Assembly: GCA_964016885.1 (NCBI GenBank)
Contig: OZ024740.1
Span: 186,000,001-186,064,000, forward strand
Reading direction: 5' to 3'
From: Eledone cirrhosa
Lineage: Eukaryota
Length of the DNA: 64,000 nucleotides
Shown here: positions 8,700 through 59,415 of the stretch, in pieces
Layout: each line of letters begins with the position of its first letter
Position numbering within the stretch: position 1 is the stretch's first letter
Notes under the pieces: generated by a model
What the model was told of the DNA's origin: nothing
The model's input: the letters and a program-made list of their open reading frames with translations, nothing else
Databases searched by the model: none
Position numbers and translations under genes: made by a program

Positions 8700-8879
8700 A
8701 GGAACGAGTAGGACCACGGCGGCTGAGCAGAAGTCGTTTCGACGGCTAATTCTGGACTAAAAAGGCTTGACCTCAGCCGTAGGGGTCCTACTCGTTCCTA
8801 TTACCCACTCTACTACCCTAAGTATTGAGTACTTTGGTGCGTAATGGTCCACCTGGTTCCTTACCACATTTCCTTCGTT
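8700..8879 (+). mobile_element. Family C palindromic mini-element
   Basis: ggaacgagtaggacc...ggtcctactcgttcc inverted ends plus an ~80 bp tail; inverted copy at 59210-59415, diverged relatives at 12460-12622 and 11020-11200. Confidence 0.82.
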
Positions 8880-8943
8880 ATATATATATATATATATATA
8901 TATATATATATATATATAGAGAGAGAGAGAGAGAGAGAGAGAT

Positions 8944-10812
8944 ATTAGAAAGTGAGGTATTTTTTACAAAATGAAAAATAACCGAGGTGTCCTCCACGAG
9001 TGAAAGTATAACGAAAAAAATCTGAAAAAATATCGAAAATGCAACTGGAGTCTTATTTTTTAAAATATATATATATTTATTTGGTTCCTTCACCGGTTTC
9101 GCAGTTCTTCTGCTTTTCAAAAGTAGAGTTAAGATAAAGGGTCTGTTGTTTTTCTCACATCTGGTTGGTCTCTGAATGTTACTTGTTTTATATGGAAAAA
9201 AGTGGCTCGAAATGCCAGGTCTTCAGAGAAGTAATTTGATTCGTTGGTCAATAATTATAATAAATTTCGCGCCTGTTCGCGTTACGAAGTTCTTCAAACA
9301 AGTGTGTGTGTGTGTGGGGGGGAGGGGGGGGGGGGGGGGGGGCTCTGGTTGTTGTTTTCATATATGAGTGTTTGAATTTCTTTTTAGTTAAAAAAAGGGG
9401 CTCACGAAGGCTCTTTTTTTTAAAACGTAATTTGATTGGTTATAAATGAAATTATGGCTATCACGTGAACAAGTTTTCATTACATTTTCGCGCCCTTATT
9501 GGGAAATTTACTCTGTAGCCTTTTTAGAGAATTTTATGACAAGCAAAAGATAATGGTCAGGAGAAATGGGATGGGAGAATTGTTCTGGTTCAGTGAATAT
9601 GGTTAGTTCGCTGGGGTGTCAGAATTCAGATTTTCTATTGAAATAAAGAAAGTAAAGATGTGTATGTTTATGTGTGTGCTTGTGTGTGTGTGTGTGTGTA
9701 ATGGAAGATGATTCTATTAGTAGAAATGGGGCAGGGAGTTGTGTGTGTGTGTATATGGGTGCTATGTGTCTGTGTGTGTATGGGAGTATGTTAAGAGGGA
9801 GAGAATATATATATTTTGTGTGTGTATTTATGTGTGTAGGAAAGTGATTCTATTAGTAGAAATGGGGGAGGGAGCTGTGGGTATGTGGGGTGGGGGCTGT
9901 TATGTGTGTGTATGGGTGTTATGTGTGTGGGAGTATGGTTAGCATGTTAAGATGAAGAGAATATATATATATATTGTGTGTGTGTGTGTAGGAAAATGAT
10001 TCCTTTAGTAGGAATATTTTTGAATGAACATATTTTCCTTAATTATTCGTATTTGTTCTGTTGTATTGTCAGCGCAAAGTAAAAATAAATTCAAACACAC
10101 AACACAACACACACAGACACACACACACACACACACACACACACACGCACACACACGCCACACAAATAAACATACATATCTTTACTTTCTTTATTTCAAT
10201 AGAAAATCTGAATTCTGACACCCCAGCGAACTAACCATATTCACTGAACCAGAACAATTCTCCCATCCCATTTCTCTTGACCATTATCTTTAGCTTGTCA
10301 TAACATTCTCTAAAAAGGCTACAGAATAGAATTCCAAATAAGGGCGCGAAATTTAATGAAAACTTGTTCACTTGACAGCAATAATTTCATTTATAACCAA
10401 TCAAATTACGTTTTTTTTAAAAAAAAAACCTTCGTGGGCCACTTTATTTTAAGTAAAAAGAAATTCAAACACTCATATATGAAAAAAAAAACCGAGCAAT
10501 CTCCCCCCCCCCCCCCCCTCCCCATGTTTGAAGAACTTTGTAACGCGAACTGGCGCGAAATTTATTATAATTATTGACCCACCAATCAAATTTCTTCTCT
10601 AAAAACCTGGCATTTCGAGCCACATTTTTTCCATATAAAACAAGTAAGATTCAGAGACCAACCAGATGTGAGAAAAACCGCAGACCCTCCATCTCGACTC
10701 TACTTTTGAAAAGCAGAAGAACTGGGAAACCGCTAAAGGAACCAAATAAATATATATATATTTTTTTTTAAATAAGACTCCAGTTGCATTTTGGATTTCA
10801 TCTTTTTTTCTT
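8944..10812. mobile_element. Family D large palindromic element (~650 bp inverted arms)
   Basis: 9033-9700 is the reverse complement of about 10140-10800; one-sided tail 8944-9032; HHR motifs at 9088-9123 (-) and 10703-10738 (+); short copy at 59582-59823. Confidence 0.9.
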
Positions 10813-11098
10813 TATATATATATATATATATATATATATATATATACACACACATACATATATATATACATATATATATATATACATATATATATATATA
10901 TATACATATATATATATACATATATATATATATATATACATATATACATATATATACATATATATATGTATATATGTATACATATATATATTGAGAGAGA
11001 GATCAGGATCTTACCGATTTTAAACAAGTAAGATCATTATTTAGCAGAGTACTCGATAACTCGGATAGAAAAGTGTAAATAATTAGATGGAGTCGGGG

Positions 11099-11185
11099 CC
11101 CGACGGCTGAACTCGTTCCGATTCGACAGCAAATTCCAGATTGTGGATGGAACTACTTTCTGTGAATAAGCCGTCTCGTCAAGGG
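11099..11185 (-). ncRNA. Decayed hammerhead (family C relative)
   Basis: CCC-UUGACGA-GACGGC...GCUGUC-GAAU-CGG...CCG-UC-GGG; helices pair but two core substitutions. Confidence 0.6.
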
Positions 11186-11694
11186 TGTGGCCTATTCTGT
11201 TTGGCGTATCGGTATATGAATAAGCGATCCAAAATGTGAATTGGCTCTTTAACTGTCATTAATGTATGTTTTAGAAACAATTGTTTATATATTTTATATT
11301 GTAAATGTGTGGTTGCGCATGTGCGTGGGAGTATGCCCTAGCGTATGAGTGTATGTGCGTGAGTGTGTATGTTTCATTATCTATGTGTATATGGGTTTGA
11401 AATTCTGTAGTATTGATGTGCTAGGGAAAATCTGGCTGCGTTGAAGAATTGTCAAGGAAAATAAAATGTGTTTTTGCTGTGTCATCACAAGTTATTTGTG
11501 TGAGCCTGTGTGCGTTGGCAGATAGGCATGACTTACGGAGGAAGATCTTCTTGGCAAATTGTTTGTTGATTGTTTTCGGGTTGTTAGATTGTCGATTTAT
11601 GTAATGTAGGGATTTATTGGGTGTCCGGGTGTAGCCCGGAGTCTAATAGGTGAGAACACCCAGAAACATATGCACAGCTCGTCATAAAATTAAA

Positions 11695-11786
11695 GGTGGT
11701 CTGACGAGCCGTGGACTACAGAGTCGGGCTAGATCGATACAAATCGAATCTTGAGCTGATCAGTGGCGAAACTTACGTCAACAACC
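11695..11786 (+). ncRNA. Hammerhead motif (family E) followed immediately by AATAAA
   Basis: ggtggt-CTGACGA-gcc...ggc-GAAA-c(ttac)g-TC-aacaacc-aataaa; helix I imperfect; paralog at 57800-57892 has gaaac-gcgc-gtc but a mutated core. Confidence 0.72.
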
Positions 11787-11971
11787 AATAAACTTAATGA
11801 AGGAGTAACCACGCGTCGTTGTTTATTTTATTATATATATATATATATATATATATATATATACTCACACACACACATAAATATATAAGTCTATCTGTAT
11901 ATATATATATATATATATATATATATATATATATATATATATATATATATATATATATATATATATATATT

Positions 11972-12410
11972 TGTGTATAGTGGTAGCTATGGTGCTTCCG
12001 TAGGCGGTATGCCAAAATTAGCACTCGATATTCATCAGAGTAGAGTGTAGATATTATAAAGAAAATGAAAAATCAGTGATGCATCTGGACTTAGTTTATT
12101 TCGTGTTACAAATGTTTCGCCGGCATGTAGCTCGAGTCATGGTCCTTGTATGGATCTGGCTGATTTTACTTCTGCGGGTTCTTTCAGACAGACACGGGTG
12201 TTATTTCCGGAGCAAATTTTATCACATGTGATATCGCAGTGATAAAATTTGCTCCGGACATAACACCTGTGTCTGAAAGAACCCGCAGAAGTAGAATCAG
12301 CCAGATCCATACAAGGACCATGACTCGAGCTACATGCCGGCGAAACATTTGTAACACGAAATAAACTAAGTCCAGATGCATCACTGATTTTTCGTTTTCT
12401 TTATAATATA
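11972..12410. mobile_element. Family F palindromic mini-element (~175 bp arms) with HHR-like motif in each arm
   Basis: 12052-12225 versus 12238-12410 near-perfect inverted repeat; plus arm tgtgt-ctgaaaga...gaaa-c(attt)g-ta-acacg then aataaa at 12268-12365; tail 11972-12051. Confidence 0.88.
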
Positions 12411-12459
12411 TATATATATATATGAATAAAGTTAGTCCTTCATCAGTGATCTTCCAACC

Positions 12460-57952: not shown

Positions 57953-58378
57953 ATAAAATAATTAAGTCAAATATGTAAAATTTGGCTTCGTTTATTATAA
58001 ATTATAGATATACTGCTATATATATTGCGGTGACAGCCATCATTGGCTGTGACCCCATATGATTCCAGTTCCTCAGAGAAATAACAGCACAACCAGGTGC
58101 TAGACATATCGATGTATTAACGCATTAAAACAAACTTCAACAACATGTGTACCTGTCTCTCCCACACCAATTCGGACTGCCTGAAGAGGTCACAGCCAAT
58201 GATGACTGTCACCGAAATATATATAGCAGTATATCTATAATTTATAATAAACGAAGCCAAATTTTACATATTTGACTTAATTATTTTACATTACTTCGGA
58301 ATAAACAAATCAACCTGCGTACTTCGTCGAGTGCCCTTAATCTGCATACTGAGGTTCGGTAAACAACCAACATAAACT
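57953..58378 (+). mobile_element. Family B palindromic element (no SINE)
   Basis: 57953-58054 inverted versus 58188-58288; tail 58289-58378. Confidence 0.88.
58176..58230 (+). ncRNA. Type I hammerhead ribozyme, canonical core (family B)
   Basis: actgc-CTGAAGA-ggtcacagccaatgatgactgtcacc-GAAA-t(atat)a-TA-gcagt. Confidence 0.88.
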
Positions 58379-58644
58379 ATATATATATATATATATATAT
58401 ATATATATATATATATATATATATATATATATATATATATATATATATATATATATATATATATATATATATATATATATATATATATATATATATGTAT
58501 ATATATATATATATAAGCAAAAAAGTGTTGGTAAAATCCAGTACTTCAGTGTGCGGATAGAGAGCACTCAACGAAGATATACATTTCGGATTTATAATAG
58601 TGACGAAACACAAGTCAATTGTATGAACTCATAATCCTTTATTT

Positions 58645-58702
58645 ACCGCTATATATATATTTCGATGATAGCCATTGTATAGCTATGACCTCATCAGGCA
58701 GT
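58645..58702 (-). ncRNA. Type I hammerhead ribozyme, canonical core (family I)
   Basis: ACUGC-CUGAUGA-GGUCAUAGCUA...UGGCUAUCAUC-GAAA-UAUAUAUA-UA-GCGGU. Confidence 0.87.
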
Positions 58703-58818
58703 CAGTAAGTTCTTAGATATGCCAGCTCTGGGTTTTTGGTGCCTGGGACATTTATGTCCCAAGGTTCTAAAACCATCAACACCAAAAACCCAGAGCTGGC
58801 ATATCTAAGAACCTACTG

Positions 58819-58872
58819 ACCGGCTGATGAGGTCATAGCCATACAATGGGTATCATAGAAATGTATAGCGGT
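58819..58872 (+). ncRNA. Hammerhead (family I), more mutated arm
   Basis: accgg-CTGATGA-ggtcatagcca...tgggtatcata-GAAA-tgta-TA-gcggt. Confidence 0.7.
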
Positions 58873-58967
58873 AAATAAAGGATTATGAGCTCATACAATT
58901 GACTTATGTTTCGTCACTCTATTTACACTGTATATATATATATATATATATATATATATATATATAT

Positions 58968-59192
58968 ATTAAAATAACAGATTAAAATTTAAGAAAAGAA
59001 TCGCTGCTTTCAGCCTTAACGGGATCTTCTGAAACTCAGAAAAGCCCATTTAAGGTGAAAGCAGCGATTCTTTACTTAAACTTTAATCTATTATTTTAAT
59101 AAATATTTGCTCTACGGTTTTTATATATTTTTATATATGTATTATCCGTATCGAGCCCTCTTCGGATATTAGTCTTCATATTTATTTTTATT
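58968..59192 (+). mobile_element. Family A palindromic mini-element
   Basis: Arms around 59036 plus the family A tail. Confidence 0.88.
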
Positions 59193-59209
59193 AATATATA
59201 TATATATAT

Positions 59210-59415
59210 AACGAAGGAAATGTGGTAAGGAACCAGATGGACCATATCGCACCAAAGTACTCAATACTTAGTGTAGTAGAGTGGGTAATAGGAACGAATA
59301 GGACCCCGACGGCTGAGCTCAAACCGTTTCGACGGCTAATTCTGGACTAAATTTTACTCCAGAATTAGCCGTCGAAACGGTTTGTGCTCAGCCGTCGGGG
59401 TCCTACTCGTTCCTA
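59210..59415 (-). mobile_element. Family C palindromic mini-element carrying only the 3' half of an HHR
   Basis: Arms 59289-59346 and 59358-59415; gccgtc-GAAA-cggtt...agccg-TC-gggg present, CUGANGA half missing. Confidence 0.85.

Follow-up and report, generated by a model that had tools for sequence, protein, structure and literature searches.

The Eledone cirrhosa DNA analysed here (GenBank assembly GCA_964016885.1, contig OZ024740.1, positions 186,000,001 to 186,064,000 of the forward strand; 64,000 nucleotides (nt), hereafter the window) carries insertions whose unpaired tails share the short motif GYACTCRAY. An earlier note on the window had treated this motif as a linear signal common to Penelope-like elements (PLEs). 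Our analysis indicates instead that the motif forms one arm of a predicted hairpin, whose other arm lies on its 5′ side. Comparative evidence from sequence suggests that this bulged, predicted hairpin is doubled in the 5′ untranslated region (UTR) of the Hydra clade of PLEs, where each copy probably binds the reverse transcriptase (RT) and fixes one of two starts of complementary DNA (cDNA) synthesis, about 4-14 nt to its 5′ side.

A predicted bulged hairpin behind the tail motif

The coordinates of the earlier note were reproduced throughout (13/13 sites and 8/8 terminal strings, offset at most 1-2 nt), and exact matches to GYACTCRAY are enriched in the window: 10, against a shuffle mean of 3.08 and maximum of 8, with 0 of 100 shuffles reaching 10. 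One of the ten, at 53865, was absent from the earlier list and is a chance occurrence, more than 9.6 kb from the nearest (TA)n run; it falls in a region of broken open reading frames (ORFs) of retrotransposons lacking long terminal repeats (non-LTR), of which the window has two types (45345-47461, minus strand, and 50375-56219, plus strand). For the 13 listed sites the nearest (TA)4 run is 35-83 nt away, where the earlier note had given 30-75 nt; they represent 10 BLAST-distinct families rather than 13 independent ones: the sites at 8822, 12505 and 59256 form one family, and those at 8046 and 59149 another (family A). The positional bias extends to held-out sequence: in 80 evenly spaced 10-kb stretches (800 kb) of the same genome (G000), a (TA)5 run at 25-90 nt accompanies 20 of 43 motif matches on the predicted side, and 4 on the opposite side, compared with a mean of 1.18 and a maximum of 12 for 200 letter-permuted motifs. 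The placement downstream of the hammerhead holds in full-length copies; in the window, a simple regular expression finds a whole core upstream of only 4 of the 13 sites, at 123-145 nt, and most of the remaining copies are truncated inside the hammerhead. The outer strings GG(T)GTAAC and GTGGTA, which had been taken as part of the signal, are present where listed and show no enrichment across families (2 of 44 family representatives versus 0.73 in shuffles, with 53 of 300 shuffles reaching 2), nor do they precede any of 26 ATG-proximal hairpins. For lack of that enrichment, terminal GTTACC/TACCAC was dropped as a general signal.

Read in the sense of the element, the motif is R-U-Y-GAGURC, the 3′ strand of a hairpin with the pattern RCUC-stem-loop-stem-U(U/C/A)-GAGY, in which U-Y (or U-A) is bulged and R closes the second stem. 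Insertions were gathered independently of GYACTCRAY, by searching (TA)n for inverted repeats that have an unpaired tail on one side (157 insertions, 44 families); many of their tails begin with a short AU-rich linker, then a 5′ arm pairing with GAGU and then a second stem. The lower stems differ across families (ACTC/GAGT, GCTC/GAGC, GTTC/GAAC, TTTC/GAAA, GCTT/GAGC and ATTC/GAGT), and the top pair of the hairpin lies 7-18 nt past the tail-less end. A descriptor of the pattern matches 14 of the 44 families, many of which are not PLEs, versus 2.0 in shuffles, and 8 of the 35 non-window families versus 1.5 (maximum 6). Since the descriptor had been written after those tails and the test was therefore not blind, outside data were sought. 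A descriptor match also follows 27 of 42 hammerhead-like sites, a count without shuffle control.

The outside set, which played no part in deriving the pattern, comprises 95 loci that carry Hydra-type ORFs and were taken from marine metagenomes and bins. In their non-coding sequence (126,643 nt), motif matches number 100 in sense and 22 in antisense, whereas the coding nucleotides of the same loci show no bias (37 versus 34). From within and outside G000 together, 79 UTRs fall into 33 BLAST clusters with non-aligning flanks; 28 of these contain at least one hairpin (2.88 when shuffled) and 17 at least two (0.02 when shuffled), which bears out the proposal of a conserved cis signal 3′ of the hammerhead. 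Reverse complements of the UTRs also exceed shuffles (at least one match in 9 of 33 clusters) because the motif is partly palindromic. These data make shared ancestry alone, with no function, hardly credible as an explanation: carriers with a known ORF do all belong to one clade and several listed sites to one family, but flanks do not align across the 33 clusters and the carrier proteins are 32-67% identical over their N-terminal 80 residues, yet the motif is doubled in most UTRs. The doubled motifs and the non-aligning clusters already contradict that account.

The two arms of the hairpin covary. When sequence alone serves to anchor both arms, pairing at upper-stem positions 1-3 is seen in 45, 35 and 32 of 51 hairpins, whereas permuted halves give 36.6, 21.1 and 20.0 (observed level reached in 0 of 5000 permutations), and position 4 pairs no better than permuted halves. 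When distal and proximal copies are treated separately, positions 2-3 keep the signal (with Watson-Crick pairs only: 42 and 108, 5 and 13 of 20000). In an alignment of 40 short-loop copies (A2), 97.5% of cells are paired, the closing pair being CG in 23, UA in 14, UG in 1 and unpaired in 2. Across the hairpins of the UTRs, the two arms are separated by 7 to 65 nt. Of the 13 listed window sites, 9 were recovered at E <3 by a covariance model trained on full-length UTRs, along with a candidate at 20926 and a second hairpin at 4265-4295; in a 1-Mb sample, 40 of its 55 matches have (TA)4 within 100 nt downstream, versus 14% of random positions. Among 12 master loci compared with Rfam at E up to 1, the sole match was a hammerhead, and the hairpin matched no curated Rfam family. 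The same features weigh on the option, raised in the earlier note, of a pseudo-LTR (pLTR) core promoter element acting in double-stranded DNA. The pLTR is where the promoters of PLEs are located (cited in PMC11167929), and the hairpin stands upstream of the ORF, but a promoter element would not be expected to show a variable spacer, covarying stems and a link to both ends of insertions, and we consider this option very improbable.

Hydra-clade carriers and the tandem pair

Judged by the motifs of their proteins, the hairpin carriers are Hydra-clade PLEs, not PLEs at large. The window holds two GIY-YIG endonuclease remnants, one of which, at 26574, lies in the insertion whose tail bears the site at 25748. 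Long copies of that family encode RW, DKT, CxCX5C, CxxC and CxH and lack CCHH; RW[KR], DKT, a CxCX5C linker, CxxC/CxH and the absence of CCHH are marks of the Hydra clade (PMC8557442). Specifically, the N-terminal RWK motif reads RRLRW, RRIRWR or KRLRWR in loci L221, L091, L405 and other masters (RW[KR] in 93 of 120 homologues); DKG is replaced by DKT, as HSDKT or PSDKT in L221, L223, L091 and L405 (DK[TS] in 114 of 120); and CxCX5C, CxxC and CxH, around a conserved E and N, are found as loose patterns in 113, 119 and 114 of 120. In the window remnant at 26574-27038 and in L223, the last three read CNC..CPL, CNLC..E and CLH, and the GIY-YIG core contains no cysteine pair. Open Hydra-clade frames of 758 and 844 aa recur many times in G000. 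Published Hydra proteins match the carriers motif for motif by eye (PMC8557442 supplement), and the carriers have a hammerhead in the pLTR and (TA)n targets; Rfam RF00163 gives a match in L396 below the gathering score and none at that score in the window. A structure model of one Hydra homologue (predicted local distance difference test (pLDDT) 93) has telomerase RT (TERT) as its best structural match, as expected for a PLE. Pfam and PDB sequence searches with Hydra ORFs gave no matches, and viral contigs contained no relative. A Hydra ORF is tied to 5 of the 10 window families (the 59256 group, family A and the families of 40928, 25748 and 29340); the families of 11048, 12020, 57116, 58326 and 58563 are putative Hydra families.

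The Hydra clade tends to units of less than 3 kb, a tendency rather than a strict rule, from which the 59256 family departs with a tandem period of about 3.54 kb. Its whole-unit tandem arrays (G000:C1:91476611-91487265 and C1:437200345-437210965) are as rolling-circle or read-through copying would give.

By contrast, the strict hairpin is found at 0/26, 0/17 and 0/10 ends (0/53) in three families with a CCHH-type endonuclease, including the window families at 5062 and 555. The Neptune/Nematis traits (CX2-5CxxC linker and CCHH endonuclease) are absent from hairpin carriers, and the families that have them lack the hairpin. In these data the signal is therefore clade-wide rather than PLE-wide, and the earlier suggestion of an RT-binding or priming determinant shared across PLE families is narrowed accordingly: such a determinant is still the most likely role, in the Hydra clade only. 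An assignment to Nematis on the CxC linker was also considered and was dropped on the Hydra-clade description in PMC8557442 and the motif counts.

A second motif copy, missed in the earlier note, stands just past the tail end. Before the ATG of 51 ORF starts in the outside loci, two motifs are present in 36, one in 12 and none in 3. The two hairpin copies are 58-121 nt apart, between the hammerhead and the ATG; the proximal copy (hairpin 2) stands 22-65 nt 5′ of the ATG and closes mostly with CG, and the distal copy (hairpin 1) mostly with UA. A coding constraint was rejected, as the distances at which the motif precedes the ATG fall into each of the three frames (24, 18 and 9 of 51). By eye, published consensus sequences (PMC8557442 supplement) contain both copies in Hydra-1_Ajap (sea cucumber) and one in Hydra-2_Ajap and Hydra-2_Amil (coral); Hydra-1_Crog has a variant hairpin, and the Hydra-1_Amil consensus is cut short. 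Full-length copies were found in G000 for family A (L366 and L381), the 40928 family (L367), the 25748 family (L223) and others, and the masters of family A (of which 8047-8055 is a worn copy) and of the 25748 family carry hairpin 2 followed by the start of the Hydra ORF. For the 59256 family, whose master L405 has a Hydra ORF and hairpin 2, a GCTC arm was predicted 2-12 nt past the tail end and was found at 313 genome places; the whole of hairpin 2 occurs at 387 places (control 0), followed by the Hydra ORF.

Insertion ends and a candidate start signal

Both kinds of insertion end lie at a fixed distance from a hairpin, and inverted insertions mostly have one end of each kind. In the outside loci, 9 of 10 ends followed by TA fall 4-10 nt before a hairpin. 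In G000, measured to the top pair of hairpins 1 and 2, respectively, ends peak at 12 and 10 nt in the 59256 family, 10-14 and 10-13 nt in family A, 9-21 and 12-13 nt in the 40928 family, 9-16 and 10-12 nt in the 25748 family, and 12 and 12 nt in the 4062 unit. The letters after the junction usually start with TAT, and in L223 these two positions are also where DNA reads from other runs terminate in TA. Two discrete ends thus bound a tail, as in the two-site initiation of the Anolis Poseidon element PAc. In 1.55 Mb sampled irrespective of tails, inverted insertions of hairpin families (n=70) have one tail in 65 cases, two in 2 and none in 3, where independent ends would give 35, 17 and 18; over 17 families (n=100) the counts are 93, 3 and 4. 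Because one-tailed insertions supplied the reference of each family, no more than one case per family is accounted for in this way.

In Poseidon PAc, RT starts at two internal sites bounding the tail, and cutting and extension take place on both strands; the main substrate is uncut RNA, a dimer is predicted, and RNA to +172 is required although the main start lies at +111-118 (PMC11167929). We infer that this start-site biochemistry can be transferred to the Hydra clade. The protein, probably a dimer with one subunit per hairpin, would cut both strands of a (TA)n run; each hairpin would hold the RT about 10 nt from the U-A-U stretch just 5′ of it, and each DNA end would pair with one such stretch and prime one cDNA. 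The cDNA begun at hairpin 2 would copy the spacer and hairpin 1, which make up the tail, whereas that begun at hairpin 1 would skip both and have none, and joining of the two at their truncated ends would yield the inverted one-tailed insertion. Two hairpins would mean two starts, and the tail would be their spacing. Because a hairpin lies 3′ of its own start site, it would never be copied by the cDNA that it starts, which would explain why both signals are found only at pLTR-ORF junctions and in tandem copies. More tentatively, the tandem bulged hairpins may form a landing pad for a dimeric, telomerase-related RT, one subunit per hairpin priming each strand of the double cut, with the spacing setting the tail and the downstream position of the signal possibly being the reason why PLEs need pseudo-LTRs and tandems.

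The same geometry could arise if the signal were read in DNA, with the GIY-YIG endonuclease acting on a longer cDNA or a tandem intermediate, recognising the motif there as a single-stranded fold-back or an inverted pair and cutting about 10 nt away, so that the ends would be cut sites. The fixed distance and the 3.54-kb tandem arrays fit this account, the tail has been attributed to endonuclease-mediated resolution (PMC8557442), and the D. virilis endonuclease needed the tail for recognition (as reported in PMC11167929). We nevertheless think it unlikely, as the sites at which a PLE RT starts in vitro coincide with tail ends (PMC11167929), an arm spacer of 7-65 nt with covarying pairs would be unneeded in a double-strand binding site, and G-U exceeds A-C inside stems (10 versus 4).

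Initiation at hairpin 2 alone, with the inverted arm made by fold-back synthesis on the first cDNA that stops at the hairpin 1 boundary, would explain the coordination of tails without a dimer and would suit the different closing pairs of hairpins 1 and 2. It appears quite unlikely, however: both ends have the same geometry to their hairpin, 48 tail-less arms were scored without an inverted partner, and a fold-back stop would land on the other side of the obstacle. Equally improbable, in our estimate, are hairpins that serve ribonucleoprotein assembly or translational control in the 5′ UTR while another nearby feature sets the starts. The distance from hairpin 2 to the ATG is compatible with such a role, and junctions that usually begin T-A-T could set the start by pairing alone, but the distance to the ATG varies more than the distance to the ends, the UTRs are rich in other, unused TAT sites, and loops of up to 65 nt leave the end distance unchanged.

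Several observations weigh against a paired RNA start signal. Three of the four lower pairs are invariant in A2 and could therefore be conserved as sequence; the covariation of the closing pair partly reflects two classes (distal UA 16/CG 4, proximal CG 22/UA 0); and RNAalifold on A2 gave just the four lower pairs, with a near-zero covariation term. The sense-strand bias of G-U over A-C is weak (p 0.09). The hairpin is also weak on its own: in 30 of 51 UTR contexts the pair probability of the lower stem exceeds 0.5, and minimum-energy folds of the 13 listed window copies contain the whole hairpin in 4, only the lower stem in 2 and neither in 7. Hairpin 2 of the 40928 family (masters L367/L373) is reduced to a plain 4-bp GCAC/GTGC without bulge, and by eye the UTR of Hydra-1_Obim has no clear hairpin pattern. 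As for the ends, the start sites are read from insertion ends blurred by TA microhomology, family A has 15 further ends at an internal TA-like stretch, and one-tail coordination is also seen in families without the hairpin, so it is a general PLE trait. Finally, the Poseidon protein in vitro showed no strand difference in start site, and its 'AC-rich stem loop' RNA lacks the hairpin pattern by eye (PMC11167929, Fig. S1B).

The window and known systems

The predicted hairpins and associated features of the window are collected in the table. The unit at 3847-4857 is a short hammerhead unit with both hairpins and no ORF after hairpin 2 in the window (further copies at L043:3297 and L058:2704), and resembles a non-autonomous mini-element in which both signals were retained. 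Hammerheads of the 59256 group (window 11090-11185, minus strand; L405:1300-1430) have a very long stem II of about 55 nt and a palindromic loop III, and are missed by Rfam. At 57722-57805 (minus strand), the window copy has lost part of the motif and hairpin that other copies of its family carry (motif in 4 of 7 ends). A dispersed repeat of about 185 nt (8222-8408, 20280-20414, 28645-29140, 34990-35179 and 51633-51807), which has the look of a short interspersed element (SINE), has 31 ends in the sample, none with the hairpin. The minus-strand segment 4950-6276 is a remnant of a CCHH-type (Neptune/Nematis-like) PLE with a hammerhead at 5062 and no Hydra hairpin; a first look gave 13,684 candidates in G000. 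In a non-Hydra CCHH family spread across G000 (L079:5599-5701), ATATCG follows both the tail-less and the tail end directly in the uncut template and may be another clade's paired start signal; a 46-nt tandem array at G000:C1:132947038-132947575 is built from the tail-end junction of the CCHH family. Hydra-clade PLE ORFs with (TA)n flanks also occur in GTDB prokaryote bins (L317-L334), most likely as animal host contamination.

Table. Predicted hairpins and associated features in the window (positions counted from its first letter)
Feature	Position	Strand	Remarks
Hairpin 1 with long loop, unit 4062-4264	4107..4168	+	unit repeated at 4655-4857, there ending in TA
Hairpin 2 within the window	4272..4290	+	starts 12 nt past the point where the other unit copy ends in (TA)n
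Hairpin 1, 59256 family	8806..8831	+	
Motif 11049-11057 in single worn copy, weak 5′ arm	11045..11082	-	covariance model E 2.1; hammerhead-like core 125 nt upstream
Hairpin TACTC/GAGTG, bulge TC	12022..12042	-	tail of inverted insertion 12055-12405
Hairpin 1, 59256 family, worn, closing pair mismatched	12503..12540	-	motif 12507-12515
Further hairpin candidate beside inverted repeat 20955-21113	20931..20950	-	top match of the covariance model
Hairpin 1: TACTC/GAGTG, CAGT/ACTG, bulge TC	25750..25776	-	tail of inverted insertion 25790-28143
GIY-YIG endonuclease end of Hydra-clade ORF, insertion 25790-28143	26574..27038	+	CxCx5C linker, CxxC, CxH
Hammerhead motif and tail-less end of insertion 25790-28143	28053..28143	+	
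Hairpin variant, 1-nt bulge	29342..29363	-	other copies with 4-bp upper stem; Hydra-type ORF link via L067
Hairpin 1, 40928 family: TACTC/GAGTA, TGC/GTA, bulge TT	40930..40950	-	
Hairpin, compensatory lower stem GCTC/GAGC	57117..57153	-	
Hairpin, long upper stem; motif 58326-58334	58292..58333	+	tail of inverted insertion 57951-58291
Motif 58564-58572, upper stem CGAA/TTCG, mismatched 5′ arm	58565..58593	-	
Hairpin 1, family A: GCTC/GAGC, TACGG/CCGTA, bulge TC	59108..59157	+	
Tail of 59256-family insertion, between two putative cDNA start sites, ends in (TA)n	59211..59288	-	
Hairpin 1, commonest Hydra family	59258..59283	-	ACTC/GAGT lower, TACT/AGTA upper, bulge TT; motif 59257-59265
Inverted arm pair, 59256-family insertion	59289..59415	.	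holds 3′ half of hammerhead; second arm stops 12 nt before hairpin 1

How PLEs choose their RT start and come by a one-sided tail has been open, the sole biochemical study having found two internal starts and left the signal unmapped. The paired hairpins would explain this long-known tail, and the landing pad, if true, would give PLEs of any kind their first defined RNA start signal, conserved from cnidarians to echinoderms and in the genome of the window. As a paired element of 20-40 nt at a fixed distance from both ends and conserved across phyla, it can be tested with a few point mutants. It would offer a simple RNA-RT model for telomerase's closest retroelement relatives, a marker by which to annotate Hydra-clade elements together with their short, non-autonomous copies, and perhaps a portable start signal that RT-based DNA writing could use.

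Stringent long interspersed elements (LINEs) and SINEs carry small 3′ stem-loops that are recognised in cis by the RT of the element and lie inside the copied region, 5′ of the start; the Hydra hairpin, in contrast, lies outside the cDNA that it would start, and is doubled. The epsilon element of hepatitis B virus is likewise a bulged two-stem RNA that binds RT and directs initiation, but there the bulge is the template for protein priming, whereas the Hydra junction lies about 10 nt outside the stem (PMC8903280, PMC3748129). The template boundary element in helix II of ciliate telomerase RNA is a short stem-loop with a conserved base, bound by a related RT beside an internal template; it differs in lying 5′ of the template and stopping synthesis, whereas the Hydra hairpin, located 3′ of the copied region, would set where synthesis starts (PMC4993307). 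Closest in arrangement is Poseidon PAc (Frangieh et al. 2024, PMC11167929), in which two starts bound the tail 3′ of the hammerhead at the pLTR-ORF junction and RNA 3′ of the start is required; unlike those of Hydra elements, its sites are inside the ORF and its binding motif is unmapped, whereas Hydra elements have a repeated element beside each site, in the UTR.

The elements themselves agree with the Hydra clade as described by Craig et al. (2021, PMC8557442) in RW[KR], DKT, CxCX5C, the lack of CCHH, the hammerhead, (TA)n targets, partial tandems and inverted one-tailed copies, and depart from that description in the length of their tails (about 60-120 nt versus 30-40 nt) and in some units of more than 3 kb. 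The portions of that paper covered describe no UTR hairpin and the word 'hairpin' is absent from its supplement, although its consensus sequences contain the structure; 'hairpin' and 'stem-loop' are likewise absent from the covered portion of PMC4209133, and the covered portion of bioRxiv 10.64898/2026.07.22.740005 gives no account of a paired hairpin. We found no report of one elsewhere in the literature within reach; a mention could exist in subscription papers and Repbase notes, which lay outside it. Both the element clade and stem-loops that bind RT are known, and what is new is a doubled hairpin 3′ of the sites that it would set.

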